From Patescibacteria group bacterium (GTDB lineage: Bacteria; Patescibacteriota; Minisyncoccia; Phycocordibacterales; PALSA-1337), in contig JAZKDJ010000001.1 in the NCBI GenBank assembly GCA_040387635.1, positions 115,851 through 179,850 on the forward strand: a DNA stretch of 64,000 bases, read 5' to 3'. Made by a program: the position numbers and the translations under genes. The notes beneath the pieces were generated by a model. The model was not told the origin of the DNA, ran no database searches, and worked only from the letters and a program-made list of their open reading frames with translations. This document shows positions 18,099-60,158 of this stretch, in pieces (the first letter of the stretch is position 1; each line of letters starts with the position of its first letter).

Positions 18099-18431
18099 CT
18101 ATTTCTCAAAACTAGAAATGATTTTATTTCTAAGTTCAGTAGACATGCTCTTTGGTATCTTTTTCTCTGCCTGCTCACGTGTAAGAGGCCTATCTGAAAA
18201 TGAGCCTTTAAAGAAAGATGAGTACACAAGCCATCCTGATATGACAATACAGATCAGCGCTACACCTACCAAATAGTGCCCTGCCGTCTTCTCATCCTTG
18301 GCTATGCCCTTGCGAGCAAGCCATGCTACAACCCCAGGTGTTACTGGAGCCCCTAATATTTGCTTAGACTTATACGATCCGTATCTACTCTGTCCGCTAT
18401 CCTCATCGAACTGTACAGGTTGTGGAGGCAT
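18099..18431 (-). CDS. hypothetical membrane protein
   Basis: 110-aa ORF with one TM helix (YLVGVALICIVISGWLVYSSFF); co-oriented upstream of the pilin. Confidence 0.5.
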   Translation of the reverse strand: MPPQPVQFDEDSGQSRYGSYKSKQILGAPVTPGVVAWLARKGIAKDEKTAGHYLVGVALICIVISGWLVYSSFFKGSFSDRPLTREQAEKKIPKSMSTELRNKIISSFEK

Positions 18432-18515
18432 TTGAAATATCGATATTTAAGTAAACTTAATTACCCATTGATTATATACCAGAAAACAGCCCTAAAAGTA
18501 TGGGTGTGTATAAGA

Positions 18516-20033
18516 CTACAGCTTATAAATCTCAGTATACTTTTCTTCTAGATACTCAGTAAAATACTTACTGTTAAGTTCTTCACCTGTCACCTTTTTG
18601 GCTAGATTCTTTGCGGTGTGAGTTTTTCCTGTGGCGTGAATGTTCTTTCGAAGCCATTCTCTGACTTCTGTAAACTGTCCTTTCTCTATTTTCTTAGAAA
18701 TGTCAGGAATGTCCTTTTCCATCGCATGATAAAATTGCGCTGAATATAGATTGCCGAACGTATATGTAGGAAAATATCCAATACCTCCAAATGACCAATG
18801 AACATCCTGGAGTACTCCTTGTGAATCAGTTGCGGGCTCTATTCCGAAATATTCCTTCATCTTTAGATTCCAAATCTTTGGAAGGTCCTTTAAATCAATC
18901 GTACCTTCCATCATTCCCTTTTCGATTTCAAAACGAAGAATGATATGCAAGTTATAGGTAACTTCGTCAGATTCAGTTCTTATAAAAGACGGACGCACAT
19001 TATTGAGTGTTTTGTAGAAGTCCTCGATAGCAATCTTTGAAAAAGGTTGAGGAAATTCTTTCTTGAGCAATGGATAAAAATGCTTCCAGAACGGTAAGCT
19101 TTTTCCCACCATGTTTTCCCATAGCCTTGATTGCGACTCGTGAATACCAAGAGATACTGATTCAGCGAGCGGCGTACCAAAATGCTCCACAGGTAATCCT
19201 TGTTCATACAATGCGTGCCCTGCTTCGTGTATTGTAGATGAAATCGAATAGAAAATATCGGTCGTTGAATATCGACTCGTTATGCGAACATCGTGAGGAT
19301 GAAGTCCTGTAGCAAATGGGTGTGTGGAAACATCAATTCTACCTGCTTGAAAATCGAAACCAATTTTCTCCAATAACTTCTTATTAAAATCGATTTGCTT
19401 GTCGATTGGAAATTTTCCATTGAAAGCCTTCGTTGGTATCTTCTGCCCTGATTCCTTTATGCGTTTCAAGAATGGCACCAAAAACAATTTCAGATCATTC
19501 AAAATCTTCGATGCCTCGGCCGTAGTCATACCTGCTTCGTATTGGTCAATCAACGCATCATAAGGAGATTCTTTGTATCCTACGTAGACAGCTTCTTTTC
19601 TTTTTAGATTTACAATCTTAGTAAGCCATGGAAGAAAAAGCTTGAAATCATTATTCTTTCGAGCCTGTGCCCAAGTAATCTGGGCCTTAGAACCTATTTC
19701 AGCCATTTCTCGCACGAATGCTTCAGGAAGCTTTCTCTCCCTATCATATTGTCTCCATGTCTCATTTACGATAACAGCATCCTTCCCTTTGATATTACCT
19801 CCGTCAGTTTCTTTTTTGAGCTTTGAAAGCAACCCGTCGGTATCGAGGCCTAGTAATTTCGAATGGATAATAGCACTCAATTCAGAAATTGATGCTGCTC
19901 GATAATCGGAAGCCTTCGGAGGAAGGTTTGTTTCCTGATCCCAACCCAAAAGACCATTAATTGACGCAAGATGAGATATCTCGAGCAATCGCTTCTTGAG
20001 CTCTTTGATGGGAGTAATCTTTGTAACCTTCAC
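18516..20033 (-). CDS. M32 family (Taq-type) carboxypeptidase
   Basis: 505-aa ORF; zinc motif HEAGHALYEQG and M32-wide collinearity; GTG start 4 nt after tRNA-Glu. Confidence 0.9.
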   Translation of the reverse strand: MKVTKITPIKELKKRLLEISHLASINGLLGWDQETNLPPKASDYRAASISELSAIIHSKLLGLDTDGLLSKLKKETDGGNIKGKDAVIVNETWRQYDRERKLPEAFVREMAEIGSKAQITWAQARKNNDFKLFLPWLTKIVNLKRKEAVYVGYKESPYDALIDQYEAGMTTAEASKILNDLKLFLVPFLKRIKESGQKIPTKAFNGKFPIDKQIDFNKKLLEKIGFDFQAGRIDVSTHPFATGLHPHDVRITSRYSTTDIFYSISSTIHEAGHALYEQGLPVEHFGTPLAESVSLGIHESQSRLWENMVGKSLPFWKHFYPLLKKEFPQPFSKIAIEDFYKTLNNVRPSFIRTESDEVTYNLHIILRFEIEKGMMEGTIDLKDLPKIWNLKMKEYFGIEPATDSQGVLQDVHWSFGGIGYFPTYTFGNLYSAQFYHAMEKDIPDISKKIEKGQFTEVREWLRKNIHATGKTHTAKNLAKKVTGEELNSKYFTEYLEEKYTEIYKL

Positions 20034-20037
20034 GTTG

Positions 20038-20109
20038 TGACCCTACAGGGAATCGAACCCTGGTTTGAAGCTTGAAAAGCTTCCGTCCTAGCCGTTAGAC
20101 GATAGGGCC
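20038..20109 (-). tRNA. tRNA-Glu (anticodon UUC), no encoded CCA
   Basis: hand-folded cloverleaf: acceptor GGCCCTA/TAGGGTC, anticodon arm GAAGC-TTTTCAA-GCTTC, T arm CAGGG-TTCGATT-CCCTG. Confidence 0.92.
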
Positions 20110-20154
20110 GGCTGACTGGTTCACATAGATTAACATGCGAACCAAGTGCCGAAT

Positions 20155-20163
20155 AATATAGCA
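20155..20163 (-). promoter_or_regulatory. extended -10 box (TGCTATATT) for the tRNA-Glu/carboxypeptidase transcript
   Basis: TGnTATATT on minus strand about 45 nt upstream of the tRNA-Glu 5' end. Confidence 0.55.
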
Positions 20164-20186
20164 TATTTTTGCTAAAAGGCAAAAAA

Positions 20187-20195
20187 TGCTAGGAT
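20187..20195 (+). promoter_or_regulatory. extended -10 box (TGCTAGGAT) for tRNA-Ser
   Basis: ends 11 nt before tRNA-Ser; the identical 11-mer ATGCTAGGATA also occurs at 4144-4154. Confidence 0.55.
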
Positions 20196-20206
20196 AGTCG
20201 TACTCT

Positions 20207-20296
20207 GGAGAGATGGCTGAGTGGTTGAAAGCACCGCTCTCGAAAAGCGGCAGGCCTTAACGGGTCTCGAGGGTTCGAATCCCTCTCTCTCCGCCA
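20207..20296 (+). tRNA. tRNA-Ser (anticodon CGA), CCA encoded
   Basis: acceptor GGAGAGA/TCTCTCC, anticodon arm CCGCT-CTCGAAA-AGCGG, long variable arm, T arm GAGGG-TTCGAAT-CCCTC, terminal GCCA. Confidence 0.92.
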
Positions 20297-20382
20297 AACT
20301 AGCAACCTTTTGTATCGATTAATGCACACTTAACAAAGTATCTGATAAAATAAACTAAATTAATCATTAGACAAAAAACAAC

Positions 20383-20763
20383 ATGGCAAAATATGTAGAC
20401 GGGTTTGTATTTGCAGTTCCTGAAGACAAAGTGCAAGAGTATACAAAGATGGCTACCGAAGGCCGTGATACATGGATGAAGCATGGTGCCCTAGAATATT
20501 ACGAATGTAAGGGCAATGATCTTGAACCCAAAGAAATGGGTGGCATGAAGCATCTAACGTTTCCTGAGCTCGCAAAAGCAAACGCTAATGAAACCGTATG
20601 GATTTCTTTTATTGTATTTAAATCAAAAGAACATCGCGATGAGGTCAACAAAAAAGTGATGGCTGAGATGGACGAAAAATATAAGGATGCAAAGGATGTT
20701 TCTATGCCATTTGATATGCAGCGCATGGCGTACGGAGGTTTTAGTGTGGAAGTGGAGGGTTAA
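20383..20763 (+). CDS. DUF1428 (YbaA-like) protein
   Basis: 126-aa ORF; MAKYVDGFVFAVPEDK...MPFDMQRMAYGGF closely parallels E. coli YbaA as I recall it. Confidence 0.85.
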   Translation: MAKYVDGFVFAVPEDKVQEYTKMATEGRDTWMKHGALEYYECKGNDLEPKEMGGMKHLTFPELAKANANETVWISFIVFKSKEHRDEVNKKVMAEMDEKYKDAKDVSMPFDMQRMAYGGFSVEVEG

Positions 20764-20791
20764 CACCTTCAGGTAATTCCCATATATTACG

Positions 20792-20800
20792 TGATATAAT
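20792..20800 (+). promoter_or_regulatory. extended -10 box (TGATATAAT), 8 nt before ATG 20809
   Basis: TGnTATAAT consensus match. Confidence 0.6.
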
Positions 20801-20808
20801 TCGAAATT

Positions 20809-21273
20809 ATGGAATATATAACAAGTTTGTTCGAAGGACGACTCAGAAGAAAACAATGGATTCTGGGTTTCCTTCTTTTAATAGCAGCATCAATCATTAT
20901 TAGCCTTATCGCCTCAATCATCACAAACTTGAGCTCAATGTTGGGTTCTATAGTTAATTTTGCGGCGATGATTGTTCTTCTTATCGCCCACCTTTCAATA
21001 CATGCAAGGCGATATCATGACACTGGCAAATCAGCATGGTTTGTCATTCTCATGCTCATTCCTGTAGTAAACATTATTGCTTTTATCATTCTTTGCTTCG
21101 ACGCAGGAGACGAAGGTGATAACGCATATGGACCGGTACCTAACCCTGATGAATCAGTTGTAGATGCAGTATTCAAGCGACCAGGATCAGCAGCAGCTGG
21201 AGAGACAATCGTGGAACCTATCAAGAATGACACGACCGCTCCTCCAGGAACATTCACCGGACCGCAATCTTAA
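20809..21273 (+). CDS. DUF805 family membrane protein
   Basis: 154-aa ORF; RRYHDTGKSAWF loop between TM helices is the DUF805 hallmark. Confidence 0.8.
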   Translation: MEYITSLFEGRLRRKQWILGFLLLIAASIIISLIASIITNLSSMLGSIVNFAAMIVLLIAHLSIHARRYHDTGKSAWFVILMLIPVVNIIAFIILCFDAGDEGDNAYGPVPNPDESVVDAVFKRPGSAAAGETIVEPIKNDTTAPPGTFTGPQS

Positions 21274-21275
21274 CT

Positions 21276-21578
21276 ATGAGAAACTTCCTTGAGTTCATAC
21301 GCACCCAGGGCGTCGTGGGTCTTGCAGTTGGTTTTATCCTAGGTGGTTCCATTTCAAGATTGGTATCATCTATAGTAAACGACCTCATTAATCCACTCAT
21401 CGGCCTTGGTTTAGGAAAATACGCAGACCTCAAAGACATCTACATTCCGGTCTTCAACGCCAAGATCGGCTTAGGAAGCTTCTTGGCAGCCGCTATTGAT
21501 TTTCTTATCATAGCTGCTGTAGTATACTTTGGTGTAAAGAAGCTCGGGTTAGACAAGATAGATAAGCCAAAAACTTAA
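21276..21578 (+). CDS. mscL: large-conductance mechanosensitive channel
   Basis: 100-aa ORF; FIRTQGVVGLAVGFILGG TM1 motif; short form. Confidence 0.85.
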   Translation: MRNFLEFIRTQGVVGLAVGFILGGSISRLVSSIVNDLINPLIGLGLGKYADLKDIYIPVFNAKIGLGSFLAAAIDFLIIAAVVYFGVKKLGLDKIDKPKT

Positions 21579-21591
21579 GTTGCTATCAAGT

Positions 21592-21621
21592 TTTTTGTGA
21601 GTTTCTTTGATTAGCACGTGG
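21592..21621 (+). repeat. composite motif TTTTTGTG-N9-GATTAGCACGTGG (copy 1)
   Basis: second copy with N8 spacing at 63524-63552; both copies are intergenic. Confidence 0.4.
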
Positions 21622-21655
21622 CTCTAAGTGCGAAAGTACGGAAGAGTTACGTTGC

Positions 21656-21728
21656 GGGCGGTTAGCTCAGTTGGTAGAGCGCAACATTGACGTTGTTGAT
21701 GTCGGGGGTTCGAATCCCTCACCGCTCA
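21656..21728 (+). tRNA. tRNA-Val (anticodon GAC), no encoded CCA
   Basis: acceptor GGGCGGT/ACCGCTC, D arm GCTC-AGTTGGTA-GAGC, anticodon arm CAACA-TTGACGT-TGTTG, T arm GGGGG-TTCGAAT-CCCTC. Confidence 0.92.
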
Positions 21729-21744
21729 CAGTTACAATCAAAAG

Positions 21745-21781
21745 GAAAAAAGCGCCACTGTACCGATCAGTGGCGCTTTTA
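21745..21781. terminator. bidirectional terminator (tRNA-Val / gmk-like)
   Basis: AGCGCCACTG-taccgat-CAGTGGCGCT with A-run and T-run flanks. Confidence 0.85.
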
Positions 21782-21805
21782 CGTAAATCCTACAAATGAA
21801 GAGCG

Positions 21806-22489
21806 TCAATCTTGCGGGGACGGACATGTCCGGAGGTAGCTGTCGACAATCGACAGCAAACTCGAGACGCCGGCCTCGATGGTCCCTGTGTTCAACACGA
21901 CGTCGGTGCAATACCTACCGAAGATCTCCTTCTCCTGCTGAGCTTCCGCAAGCCGTGCCTTGATATCGTCCTCCGAATCACCGCGCGCCTTGAGTCTCTC
22001 CTCAAGAACGTAGAACGGCGCATCAATGAAAATGGCAGGCGTGCCAGGCATCAAATTGTTGACCTGCTCAATGCCTCCCACTGTTATGTTGAGGACCGGG
22101 ACTTTCCCAAGTGCCCAAACGTTACGCAGGGCCGCAACAGAGACGCCGTAATAGTTTTTGTTTCCGACCGCTCCAAAGAGATCGTACTCGATGAAATCGC
22201 CACCGACAATTCCCTTCTCGAAATTGGGGCGACCGAGAAAGTGGTAGTCAATTGATTCAACCTCACCACTCCGAGGGGGGCGCGTCGTTGTCGTTACTAC
22301 TCGACAGAGACGGTCAGGCCTCTTCGTAAGGAGTGCCTTGATGAGCTCGGTCTTGCCGGCTCCCGAGCAACCGAATATCTTCAACGCTTTCGCCCTTTTG
22401 AGCTCGGCAATGACATCGGGTTGCAACTTAACGCGCAAAGGATGAGTACCCTTGAGCTCCACGGACAGTGCAGGTGCGATTGCAGTCAT
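21806..22489 (-). CDS. guanylate kinase-like P-loop kinase (G+C-rich)
   Basis: P-loop GCSGAGKT plus TTTRPPRSGEVESIDYHF guanylate-kinase motif; the 22546 start in the track is TTG, first ATG is 22489. Confidence 0.75.
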   Translation of the reverse strand: MTAIAPALSVELKGTHPLRVKLQPDVIAELKRAKALKIFGCSGAGKTELIKALLTKRPDRLCRVVTTTTRPPRSGEVESIDYHFLGRPNFEKGIVGGDFIEYDLFGAVGNKNYYGVSVAALRNVWALGKVPVLNITVGGIEQVNNLMPGTPAIFIDAPFYVLEERLKARGDSEDDIKARLAEAQQEKEIFGRYCTDVVLNTGTIEAGVSSLLSIVDSYLRTCPSPQD

Positions 22490-22574
22490 AGGTATGCAGT
22501 TGTAATGGTCTGGCCAAACAGTACCAGAACATTTGATATGTTTCAAGGTAAAACCTTTTCAATTACGTCTTTTC

Positions 22575-28913: not shown

Positions 28914-29237
28914 TTACTGCCAGGTCCTTTTCTTGTTGATTTCCTCTTTTTCACGGAAAGCTTTTTCCAAATCTATATTGAAATGGTTGCAGATATCCAA
29001 AAGATACACAAAAACATCAGCGATCTCATGATCAAGGTGATACTCTTTCGAATTCTTGTCAGTGTGGATCTTCTGAGATTTTCTAGCAGCTTTCGCCATC
29101 TCACCGCACTCCTCGATCATAAGCATGAACATTTCTGGAACGGTTTCCTTCCCAAAACCACGCTCTATGACCATCTCGGCAATGTATTTTTGATAATCCT
29201 TCAGAGTGGGATTTTTCTTGAGAGAAAGTTTGCTCAT
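28914..29237 (-). CDS. MazG-like nucleoside triphosphate pyrophosphohydrolase (small, single domain)
   Basis: 107-aa ORF; EECGEMAKA and EIADVFVYLLDICNHFNIDLEKAF helices typical of the MazG/all-alpha NTP-PPase fold. Confidence 0.8.
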   Translation of the reverse strand: MSKLSLKKNPTLKDYQKYIAEMVIERGFGKETVPEMFMLMIEECGEMAKAARKSQKIHTDKNSKEYHLDHEIADVFVYLLDICNHFNIDLEKAFREKEEINKKRTWQ

Positions 29238-29328: not shown

Positions 29329-29374
29329 GTACTTTTTACTCAACAAATGTAGCACATCCAGTGGTAATTTAAAA

Positions 29375-36317: not shown

Positions 36318-36708
36318 GATGTAATTACGCCTATAAGCCGAATTCTGTATCCTTCCGATCAAGCTTGCACCTGTCGGAAGGACGACAACCATTAATCTGG
36401 GCCGGAAGTTGCCTTCCGGCTCAAGCGGCACTCCTACTTGCGTAGGCACGGCCTTGCACAGAGGTAAGGATTTAGCGCGTTGCACTCTTCCTGTTACCAG
36501 GAGACTCATCCGGATTTGCACCCGGATGCCCTCGCCTTTCGGCATGATCAGCCTTGCGACCAATCGGGCGTCTCTGTTCGCACCTCGCAGATTGCTCTGG
36601 ACGGGCGTTACCCGCTACCCTGCTGCCGCACATCTTGCGATATACAGCCTGTGTTCGGACTTTCCTCTATTCGAGCTTTCGCTCGCATAGCAGTTGTCTA
36701 ACGTAACA
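36318..36708 (-). ncRNA. rnpB: RNase P RNA, bacterial type A
   Basis: minus strand carries GAGGAAAGTCCGAACAC (P4 5' half), GGGTAACGCCCG, GCCGCTTGAGCC, CCAGATTAATGG and ACAGAATTCGGCTTATAGG (P4 3' half); ends approximate. Confidence 0.9.
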
Positions 36709-36713
36709 ATATA

Positions 36714-58193: not shown

Positions 58194-60158
58194 ATGACAC
58201 CAGAATCAAAGCCTGAACCGAAAGCTCCAGCTCCAAGAACAGCAGCGCCTGCACCAGCAGGAGGAGTACCACGACCGTTCAACAGAAATAGCAGGCACGG
58301 TGCAGGAGGTCCTCGAAGATCAGGAGGAGGAATGCGCGGTGGAGGAAGAGGTGGACGCGACCGACGAGGCTTCCGAGACAAGGATGCTTCGCCTCGGATG
58401 AGCCACGTCGCTCCCCGCCCAAGCACTCCCCAGACAGACGCCAACGGCCAGCGAAAGGTTGATGACGTCGTACCAGCTCTCGGAGCGGACAACATTCGAA
58501 TCATTCCTCTTGGAGGAGTTGAGGAGATCGGTAAGAACATGACAGCCATCGAGTATGGTAATGACATTGTTGTTATCGACATCGGTTTCCAGTTCAAGGA
58601 TGAAAACACTCCTGGAATCGACTATATCTTGCCGAACACAAAATACCTCGAAGAGCGAGTTCAGAAAGTAAAGGCAGTGATCGTAACACACGGTCACCTC
58701 GACCACATCGGAGGTATCCCTTACGTTATGCCACGAATCGGCAACCCGCCTTTGTATACAAGAAACCTCACATCAGTGATGGTCAAAAAGCGCCAGGAAG
58801 AATTTCCACATCTTCCACCTTTGGATATCCGAATCGTTGAGAAGGATCAGACAATTACCCTTGGCGACATGAAGATCAAGTTCTTCGCCGTAACTCACAC
58901 CATTCCAGACGCTATGGGTGTTATCGTGCAGACACCTCACGGATCTATTGTTCACACAGGAGACCTCAAGCTCGATCACGACAACGGTATCCCTACAGAA
59001 CAGGAAGAGAAAGAATTCGAGAAGTTCAAACATGAAAAGGTTCTTCTTTTGATGGCTGACTCTACGAACGTAGAGAACCCAGGTTTCTCAATGCCTGAAA
59101 AGACAGTTCACAAGAATATCGAAGAGATCATCAAGAACGTTAAGGGTCGCCTCATTATTGCCACCTTTGCCTCCCTCTTGGAACGAATGCTTAAGATCAT
59201 CGAATTCTCCGAGAAGTATGGAAAGAAGGTCGTCGTAGAAGGACGAAGCATGAAGACGAACATCGAGATCTGTATGAAGCTCGGTCTTCTTCAGCCTAAG
59301 AAAGATACTCTTATTACAGTTGAAGAGATGGATATGTTCCCACCTGAACGAATCGTTATCCTCGCTACAGGAGCTCAGGGCGATGAATTCGCAGCCATGA
59401 TGAGAATGTCTAACAAGACGCACAAGTACATCAAGATCAACAAGCGAGACACCATCCTTCTCTCATCTTCGATTGTTCCAGGAAACGAACGAGCAGTGCA
59501 GAAGCTCAAGGACAACCTTTCACGACAAGGTGCCTACATCATCCACTACCGAATCGCCGACGTTCACTCGTCAGGTCACGCAAACAGAGATGAGACAGCA
59601 TGGATCCATAAGAAGATTAATCCTAAATTCTTCGTTCCTGTTCACGGATATCACTACATGCTCCGTGTTCACGGTGAGATCGCCAAGGAAGCAAACAACC
59701 TTACTGAGGACGAAGTGATCATTCCAGACAACGGTATGGTGATCGAAATTCAGGAAAAAGGAACCAAGATCGTGAAGCTCAAGGAGAAGGCTCCTTCGAA
59801 CATGGTCATGGTTGATGGATTCTCTATTGGAGACGTCCAGGAAGTAGTTATCCGAGACAGGCAGATGCTAGCTGAAGACGGTATTTTCATCATCTTCGCT
59901 ATCGTTAACGCCCAGACAGGAAAACTCAAGAAGTCTCCCGATATCATTTCACGAGGATTCGTTTATCTTCGAGAGTCACAGGAACTTCTTCACCAGGCTC
60001 GAATCGTAATCAAGCAAACAATTGAAGATTCAACCAAGGGTATGAATCCAATCAACGTGGATTATGTTAAAGGAAATCTTTCAGACGACGTAAGCAAATT
60101 CCTTTTCCAGAAAACTGCGAAGAAGCCGATTGTGATTCCGGTACTTCTCACGATATAA
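58194..60158 (+). CDS. rnj: ribonuclease J with Arg/Gly/Pro-rich N-terminal extension
   Basis: 654-aa ORF; IIPLGGVEEIGKNM, THGHLDHIGG, beta-CASP and C-terminal domain; about 98 aa of RGG-type low complexity precede the core. Confidence 0.93.
   Translation: MTPESKPEPKAPAPRTAAPAPAGGVPRPFNRNSRHGAGGPRRSGGGMRGGGRGGRDRRGFRDKDASPRMSHVAPRPSTPQTDANGQRKVDDVVPALGADNIRIIPLGGVEEIGKNMTAIEYGNDIVVIDIGFQFKDENTPGIDYILPNTKYLEERVQKVKAVIVTHGHLDHIGGIPYVMPRIGNPPLYTRNLTSVMVKKRQEEFPHLPPLDIRIVEKDQTITLGDMKIKFFAVTHTIPDAMGVIVQTPHGSIVHTGDLKLDHDNGIPTEQEEKEFEKFKHEKVLLLMADSTNVENPGFSMPEKTVHKNIEEIIKNVKGRLIIATFASLLERMLKIIEFSEKYGKKVVVEGRSMKTNIEICMKLGLLQPKKDTLITVEEMDMFPPERIVILATGAQGDEFAAMMRMSNKTHKYIKINKRDTILLSSSIVPGNERAVQKLKDNLSRQGAYIIHYRIADVHSSGHANRDETAWIHKKINPKFFVPVHGYHYMLRVHGEIAKEANNLTEDEVIIPDNGMVIEIQEKGTKIVKLKEKAPSNMVMVDGFSIGDVQEVVIRDRQMLAEDGIFIIFAIVNAQTGKLKKSPDIISRGFVYLRESQELLHQARIVIKQTIEDSTKGMNPINVDYVKGNLSDDVSKFLFQKTAKKPIVIPVLLTI

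Follow-up and report, generated by a model that had tools for sequence, protein, structure and literature searches.

The window analysed here is a stretch of 64,000 nucleotides from a Patescibacteria group bacterium. It carries on its minus strand a gene for an M32 (Taq-type) carboxypeptidase (18516..20033) whose GTG start codon (20033-20031) lies four nucleotides behind a tRNA-Glu(UUC) gene of the same strand (20038..20109). The promoter signals of the locus give good support to a dependence of the M32 gene on transcription of the tRNA. Taken as a whole, the arrangement makes a bacterial form of tRNA punctuation plausible at M32, in which excision of the tRNA would also create the 5' end of the mRNA; as a single locus, it carries modest weight.

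The tRNA-Glu(UUC)-M32 junction

A sequence-only reading of this DNA had described a gap of four nucleotides between the two genes and a tRNA that lacks an encoded CCA. The coordinates, the gap and the missing CCA were all borne out by the sequence and by the ARAGORN and Rfam calls. ARAGORN placed the tRNA at 20109-20037 and Rfam RF00005 at 20109-20038 (62.7 bits, above the gathering threshold), and the extra base in the ARAGORN call is the C at position 74. The acceptor stem forms 7/7 pairs, the discriminator is an A at 20038, and the gene is the sole copy with a UUC anticodon in the assembly. The spacer CAAC (20034..20037, minus strand) begins with C74. A same-strand tRNA thus lies flush with a coding sequence at the distance of 0 to a few nucleotides that characterizes tRNA punctuation. 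In the minimum free energy fold of the precursor (ViennaRNA, 20148-19960, minus strand) the tRNA-Glu cloverleaf was retained, and a 12-bp hairpin was predicted in the 5' leader (20116..20145, minus strand).

The M32 gene was defined by its open reading frame (ORF), a Pfam match and alignment with homologs. Its product of 505 amino acids is a full-length Peptidase_M32 (PF02074, E 1.7e-182), with profile positions 2-489 of 489 aligned to residues 12-499, and the HEXXH zinc motif is intact (HEAGH at residue 269). None of the NCBIfam models matched the protein. Comparison with the nearest relative, from a metagenome contig (L079), indicated purifying selection, with a nonsynonymous divergence (dN) of 0.154 and saturated synonymous sites.

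The position of the start codon determines the length of any leader. An in-frame TAG (20045-20043) inside the acceptor strand of the tRNA closes the M32 frame upstream, and no start is therefore possible further upstream. There is no ATG between the GTG and the conserved WDQ motif; the sequence-only reading had likewise seen no in-frame Met before the conserved N-terminal helix. Other possible starts are the TTG codons 16 and 29 and the rare initiators ATT (codon 6) and ATC (codon 9). We collected 148 homologous M32 loci from public genomes and metagenomes, 139 of which had an aligned N-terminus. A canonical start codon was found 21-32 codons ahead of the Trp of WDQ in 135 of the 139 (mode 26), and at 30 codons in 17 loci, which is the distance of the GTG in the window. 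The TTG at codon 16 was rejected as a start: it lies only 15 codons ahead of the Trp, a position where the nearest start (15-16 codons) was seen in just 2 of the 139 loci, and the Pfam profile alignment already begins at residue 12. The N-termini of the three nearest relatives read MDGRLKEL (L079), MKTITVKEL (L004) and MKKKPIDEL (L002), and that of the window protein reads MKVTKITPIKEL. Given the family-typical distance to the Trp and the N-termini of these relatives, the GTG is the best candidate for the M32 start, with the ATT at codon 6 as a minor alternative.

Promoters and start signals in the genome

The genome is represented by a single 566-kb contig of 44% G+C that is 80.6% complete, and its closest M32 relatives carry the label Candidatus Saccharibacteria. 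Start signals were surveyed upstream of 556 ORFs obtained with a crude caller of our own (longest start, hexamer score), which is not a validated annotation. No Shine-Dalgarno (SD) peak was seen upstream of these ORFs, with GGAG, GAGG, AGGA and AAGG occurring at 0-7 per position between -40 and -4. The small-subunit rRNA was not found in the assembly, and hence there was no 16S 3' end to inspect. An AGGG in the 3' end of the tRNA was considered as an SD sequence for M32 and dropped, since SD usage is lacking genome-wide.

What did precede the ORFs was an A/T-rich segment at positions -12 to -6 with a TATAAT-like pattern. The hexamer TANNNT began at -12 in 71 ORFs and at -13 in 39, over a background of ~18 per position, and TATA[AC]T was counted 25 times at -12, 15 times at -13 and 9 times at -15, over a background of ~1. 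Alignment of the 110 sites at -12 and -13 gave the consensus TGnTAtA(a/c)T and, less distinctly, a TTG ~17 nucleotides upstream. Because a box of the TGnTATAAT type sits 12-13 nucleotides before the starts, we infer transcripts that are leaderless or have leaders of 1-3 nucleotides, and leaders of 0-3 nucleotides look normal in this genome. The leaderless pattern that the sequence-only reading had noticed in the window thus holds genome-wide. A further example of a leaderless-type promoter in the window is seen at 29340-29348 (minus strand). Leaderless first genes seem to occur in this genome alongside internal genes that also lack SD sequences, and the sequence patterns point to a host that initiates on leaderless or near-leaderless mRNAs without an SD sequence, as punctuation would demand.

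This bears directly on M32, as the uncut precursor would offer little to a ribosome. The 15 nucleotides ahead of the GUG are predicted to be 77% paired in the unprocessed precursor, within the tRNA arms (ViennaRNA), and the 20 nucleotides upstream of the GUG have 50% G+C, compared to a genome median of 30% and a value of 50% reached by only 9% of the ORFs. With no SD sequence and a paired, G+C-rich upstream stretch, internal initiation on the uncut precursor would have poor ground. A 5' end 3-4 nucleotides before the GUG would, on the other hand, resemble the native near-leaderless class.

A consensus scan detected an extended -10 box upstream of the tRNA, TGCTATATT (TG-C-TATATT, 20155..20163, minus strand), and a -35-like hexamer, TTGCCT (20177..20182, minus strand), separated from TATATT by 16 nucleotides, with the TG preceding the -10. 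We scored such elements with a position weight matrix (PWM) built from the 110 leaderless-type sites (mean score 9.0, sd 3.4). The TATATT (20160-20155) scored 12.4, at the 85th percentile of these sites; the promoter-like element to which the sequence-only reading had drawn attention is therefore real by the genome's own standard. From the usual spacing of 7 nucleotides, transcription is predicted to start near 20149-20147, ~40 nucleotides upstream of the tRNA. The same A/T-rich stretch (20116-20163) accommodates a second promoter, that of the divergent tRNA-Ser(CGA) gene on the plus strand (TTAACA-16-AATAAT, 20130-20157), and the two promoters overlap back to back.

The same reading had held that the gap leaves no room for a promoter. 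The sole good promoter does lie upstream of the tRNA, but a TAGGGT inside the tRNA had been overlooked. This hexamer (20040..20045, minus strand) belongs to the acceptor stem, on its 3' strand, and occupies positions -12 to -7 relative to the GTG, where it could at best be a weak internal -10 box. The PWM gave it -1.87, the lowest value among the 110 sites, despite its membership in the training set, and of all 16,860 TANNNT hexamers in the genome 86% reach or exceed this value. The test for membership in the leaderless class with its own promoter thus came out negative for M32: TAGGGT stands in register, but its score is too low and the TG is out of register. The tRNA-Glu(CUC) gene elsewhere in the genome ends in the same ten bases, and has no gene behind it. 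A scan of 18300-20900 found no terminator-like site, and as four nucleotides leave no room for a terminator, tRNA transcription should run into M32. Since the tRNA promoter scores well, TAGGGT scores worst and no terminator was detected, M32 and tRNA-Glu(UUC) are likely to be co-transcribed from the tRNA promoter. Among sequencing runs searched for this stretch, the analysis listed one DNA run, possibly the source of the assembly, two sister runs with almost none of it, and no RNA run, a result that has no bearing on whether M32 is expressed.

M32 is not the only gene placed in this manner. A long, family-supported ORF starts within 5 nucleotides of a tRNA at 2 of the 31 tRNA genes of the genome. 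The second case lies outside the window, where only CAAAC separates tRNA-Gln(CUG) (G000 233524-233595) from the ATG of a class I S-adenosylmethionine-dependent methyltransferase of 256 amino acids (L159:325-403; G000:C1:233524-233602). The spacers CAAC and CAAAC are alike. The hexamer at -12 of the methyltransferase is CCCGCA, with no TANNNT in register, which rules out an internal promoter there, and a good box, TATTTT (score 10.3), is found solely upstream of the tRNA-Gln(CUG). Behind tRNA-Ser(GCU) and tRNA-Ser(UGA), in contrast, a complete TGnTATACT box follows, with a start codon 12-13 nucleotides later. At the 29 tRNA-Glu loci of relatives, a long ORF started within 8 nucleotides of 1 of 43 tRNAs (L190), and another at 9 nucleotides (L204). 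The tRNA-abutting layout is rare but recurrent.

Two side observations concern the stretches behind other tRNAs. Several loci of relatives have a hairpin after tRNA-Glu(UUC), judged terminator-like by eye only. In the window, tRNA-Arg(CCU), which encodes its CCA (29328-29254, minus strand), is followed by 16 A-rich nucleotides (TTAATTAAAACAACTC) and the ATG (29237) of an ORF of 107 amino acids (28914-29237, minus strand) that is MazG-like by eye, with no TANNNT seen in register; this ORF may be a third gene that is transcribed from a tRNA promoter.

Proposed release of the mRNA 5' end and rival explanations

We propose that M32 lacks a functional promoter and would be carried along by the single tRNA-Glu(UUC) transcription unit. 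Transcription would begin at the promoter upstream of the tRNA and continue through the tRNA into M32. RNase P would cut the 5' side of the tRNA, and an endonuclease other than RNase Z would release the 3' side at position 73/74 or immediately behind it, the candidates being RNase Y, RNase J and a CPSF-like beta-CASP protein. The downstream fragment would then begin 3-4 nucleotides before the GUG, and would be translated without an SD sequence, in a manner dependent on its 5' end, like the leaderless genes of this genome. That tRNA 3' processing makes the 5' end of the M32 mRNA, by a cut at the junction whose product is then translated, is plausible, and we give it an even chance. As tRNA-Glu(UUC) is encoded by a single copy, its 3' end must presumably be freed efficiently.

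The nucleases encoded in the genome both permit and complicate this scheme. A class A RNase P RNA lies in the window (36318-36709, minus strand, 116.9 bits), in keeping with an RNase P cut on the 5' side. RNase J (window ~58494-60146), RNase Y, PNPase and a CCA-adding enzyme are present in the genome, and RNase E/G was not found in this assembly. RNase Z makes the tRNA 3' cut in mitochondria and Bacillus, and the sequence-only reading had invoked an RNase Z-type cleavage here. The best match to RNase Z (TIGR02651) in this genome reached 21.3 bits and lay inside RNase J, and 0 of 41 genomes of the order (this one, 80.6% complete, and 40 relatives, 35 of them at least 90% complete) had a match over the cut-off, the best being 32.8 bits. 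A look-alike of 310 amino acids in one relative (G027) showed just a 31-bit N-terminal resemblance. The other proteins with a metallo-beta-lactamase (MBL) fold were RNase J, ComEC-like proteins, small Lactamase_B_3 proteins and a beta-CASP protein, and not RNase Z. The RNase Z part of the earlier proposal therefore had to be given up, and a different endonuclease would be needed.

The beta-CASP protein, of 474 amino acids with MBL, beta-CASP and RMMBL domains, is encoded outside the window (L173:775-2199, minus strand; G000:C1:329207-330628). It resembles archaeal aCPSF1 (E 2e-87) and Cas14, both below their cut-offs, and is kept in 37 of the 40 relatives at 49-59% identity. This protein, RNase J and RNase Y are candidate endonucleases for RNA 3' ends. 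A cut independent of RNase Z has a precedent in Propionibacterium acnes, which has no obvious tRNase Z and in which an endonuclease of unidentified nature cleaves the tRNA 3' ends (Lin et al., 2013; PMC3848588).

The tRNA genes themselves carry an unusual 3' signature. All 31 tRNA genes encode a C at position 74 (for example window 20037, 21729 and 28440), 20 of the 31 encode A75, and only 4-5 encode the full CCA; the register used by our script gives 4, and it is shifted for tRNA-Ser(CGA), whose ARAGORN call ends in CCA. At the loci of relatives, C was the first base after the discriminator assigned by the script in 38 of 43 tRNAs. This signature of CA instead of CCA speaks for a lineage-specific pathway of tRNA 3' maturation, and does not speak for which one. 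A bolder and unlikely generalization would be that an order without RNase Z and RNase E/G frees all its tRNA 3' ends by an endonuclease that recognizes C74(-A75), with the CPSF73/aCPSF1-like beta-CASP protein as the best candidate, and that the same cut yields near-leaderless mRNAs wherever a gene adjoins a tRNA.

Several observations weigh against release of the M32 mRNA by tRNA processing. The enzyme that performs the 3' cut in mitochondrial punctuation had no match over the cut-off in any of the 41 genomes. Exonucleolytic trimming of tRNA 3' ends, as in Mycoplasma genitalium, would consume the mRNA and not release it, and such trimming fits the occurrence of RNase R (RNB) in 21 of 25 genomes searched, the PNPase of this genome and the universal C74. 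A 5'-monophosphate end is a substrate of the 5' exonuclease RNase J. GTG is rare at strong leaderless-type promoters, where the start codon was ATG in 90 of 94 cases, GTG in 3 and TTG in 1. The layout of tRNA-Glu and M32 is not conserved, and the ortholog of the methyltransferase in one relative (G012, 61% identity) has no tRNA upstream. With respect to the start codon, a 5'-terminal GTG suffices for leaderless translation in mycobacteria and not in E. coli (Shell et al., 2015; PMC4633059).

The first rival keeps co-transcription and dispenses with the clean cut. The tRNA 3' end would be matured by exonucleases (RNase R, PNPase) after cuts further downstream, so that each precursor gives either a tRNA, at the cost of the mRNA, or a tRNA-mRNA chimera, and M32 would be translated, probably weakly, from the chimera, with the tRNA as a 5' stabilizer against RNase J. 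The absence of RNase Z matches from the order and the presence of RNase J and PNPase here suit this explanation, as do the tRNA 3' ends, in which C74 is universal and A75 is not, as though exonucleases could halt unevenly and the CCA-adding enzyme then mended the ends. It has to contend with the pairing of the stretch before the GUG within the tRNA and the lack of an SD sequence. It would be wasteful to trim away 1.5 kb of mRNA each time an essential single-copy tRNA is made, and this assembly is among the 4 of 25 in which RNB was not found, at 80.6% completeness. On balance, we regard this explanation as rather unlikely.

A second rival concerns the history of the locus. With this query, M32 turned up in only 2 of 40 relatives, and a tRNA-Glu lay upstream of M32 in 1 of the 148 loci. 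This locus, L079, belongs to the nearest relative (77% identity) and has the same orientation, but there the spacer between tRNA-Glu(UUC) and M32 is 45 nucleotides long and contains TTGTGA-17-TAAGAT-6-ATG, a moderate leaderless-type promoter (PWM 6.84) followed by a start 26 codons ahead of the Trp. Conservation of the adjacency and spacing, which the sequence-only reading had offered as a check, therefore turned out to be thin. In the alignment, the window is gapped across just the promoter and spacer stretch of L079. Either the window lineage lost the promoter and ATG and would now use the in-frame GTG, or L079 gained both; two sequences cannot polarize the change.

The gap may indicate that M32 was orphaned recently, when the spacer was deleted together with the promoter and ATG still seen in L079, and that the gene is silent or expressed at noise level and awaits decay. 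The dispensability of M32 in the order agrees with such a fate. The frame of 505 codons is intact, however, with all its motifs and with the low dN and saturated synonymous divergence (dS) relative to L079. An in-frame GTG at a family-typical distance would be a lucky accident, and a second gene abuts a tRNA in the same genome. We consider decay of the locus distinctly unlikely.

The surroundings add to this history. The divergent tRNA-Ser(CGA)/tRNA-Glu(UUC) pair is common to many relatives, which suggests that the tRNA is old at the locus and M32 a newcomer, and M32 apparently came to lie beside a tRNA-Val/Ser/Glu cluster that is old and common to relatives. In L004 (64% identity, best segment), M32 lies 1 nucleotide after a guanylate-kinase-like ORF (named by eye), and a guanylate-kinase-like gene is present in the window at 22546-21806 (minus strand), 1.8 kb from M32. 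Between it and M32 (20207-22546) we observed genes for tRNA-Val(GAC), mscL, DUF805, DUF1428 and tRNA-Ser(CGA) on the other strand, in addition to tRNA-Glu. In more distant loci, a Nitrospirota contig has a tRNA-Glu(UUC) ~75 nucleotides after the M32 stop (L005:3107-3184), and three loci of Anaerolineae type have tRNA-Gly and tRNA-Cys ~75-100 nucleotides before M32 (L043:31-211, L116:907-1087, L118:2224-2404), a distance that leaves room for ordinary signals; both may be coincidence.

The third rival is a promoter within the tRNA gene, with TAGGGT (20045-20040) as the -10 box and transcription starting at the G of the GTG, to give a truly leaderless primary transcript. TAGGGT lies exactly 12 nucleotides before the start, which is the modal position in this genome, and TTCAAA, 18 nucleotides further upstream, matches TTGACA at 4/6 positions. 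Its score is the poorest of all the sites used, its melting core is taken up by GGG, and the TG is misplaced by one base. The sequence is also dictated by tRNA identity, as the same sequence ends tRNA-Glu(CUC) with no gene behind. The tRNA-Gln case has CCCGCA at this position, and the consensus scan did not report TAGGGT. An internal promoter is thus very improbable. Least probable is translation from the rare ATT (codon 6) or ATC (codon 9), which lie 25 and 22 codons ahead of the Trp, within the range of the family and close to the 26 of L079, and which would lengthen the 5' untranslated stretch from 4 to 19-28 nucleotides; ATT can initiate in mycobacterial leadered reporters (PMC4633059), but the canonical GTG also fits, the MK beginning agrees with L004 (MKTIT) and L002 (MKKKP), no SD sequence precedes either codon, and such a start would alter the leader length and not the reliance on the tRNA transcript.

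Comparison with known systems

If tRNA processing does release the M32 mRNA, a tRNA gene would provide a bacterial message with its transcription as well as with a 5' end fit for translation, a logic known from mitochondria. Ultra-small genomes without SD sequences could then express a newly arrived promoterless gene, since any RNA 5' end beside a start codon would suffice. The case also draws attention to the enzyme behind the maturation of tRNAs with no encoded CCA where RNase Z is lacking, and if the beta-CASP reading were true, tRNA punctuation would exist in a bacterial form that relies on a new nuclease for tRNA 3' ends. Such genes may be given a wrong start or be missed by gene callers that look for a ribosome-binding site or promoter. 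We found no description in the literature of leaderless mRNAs made by tRNA processing in free-living or epibiotic bacteria, nor any study of leaderless mRNAs or of RNase Z in Saccharibacteria, in searches that left most subscription journals outside.

One comparison lies in the genome itself. Like the genome's own leaderless genes, M32 has no SD sequence, and leaderless genes place the start codon 0-3 nucleotides from the predicted 5' end. The M32 gene of L079, with TAAGAT at -12, appears to belong to this class with its own promoter. The window M32 differs from the class in its worst-scoring TAGGGT and in its GTG, and in that its 5' end would be a 5'-monophosphate from processing and not a 5'-triphosphate.

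In the E. coli thrU-tyrU-glyT-thrT-tufB operon, a single promoter serves tRNA genes and a protein gene, and tRNA processing detaches the mRNA portion. There, a long spacer with an SD sequence lies between the last tRNA and the gene. A promoter shared by tRNA and mRNA, likely at M32, would be common to the two systems, but M32 has four nucleotides and no SD sequence. In P. acnes, many mRNAs are leaderless, 29% of them with GUG, and tRNAs are cut with or without an encoded CCA; that organism, however, belongs to a different phylum and has RNase E, none of which was found here, and the accessible part of the report describes no mRNA 5' ends made by a tRNA cut (PMC3848588). Dicistronic tRNA-snoRNA precursors have also been described (PMC4247193). 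They resemble the reading proposed for the M32 junction in that the tRNA fold sets the end of a neighbouring RNA, as do the t-elements of plant mitochondria. Both differ from it in their use of RNase Z and in the neighbour, which is an organellar mRNA or a snoRNA. In the t-elements, a tRNA-like fold serves as the processing signal and acts in an RNase Z-dependent manner.

The tRNA punctuation of animal mitochondrial transcripts was reportedly set out by Ojala, Montoya and Attardi in 1981. Unlike that system, the layout seen here involves 2 of 31 tRNAs and not a whole genome, has a GUG start with a predicted leader of 3-4 nucleotides, and is read from the sequence; and ELAC2, the mitochondrial RNase Z, has no detectable counterpart. 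As in mitochondria, a tRNA abuts a coding sequence by 0 to a few nucleotides, with no promoter or ribosome-binding site in the gap, and excision of the tRNA would leave a leaderless or near-leaderless mRNA in a system that appears to translate leaderless mRNAs routinely.

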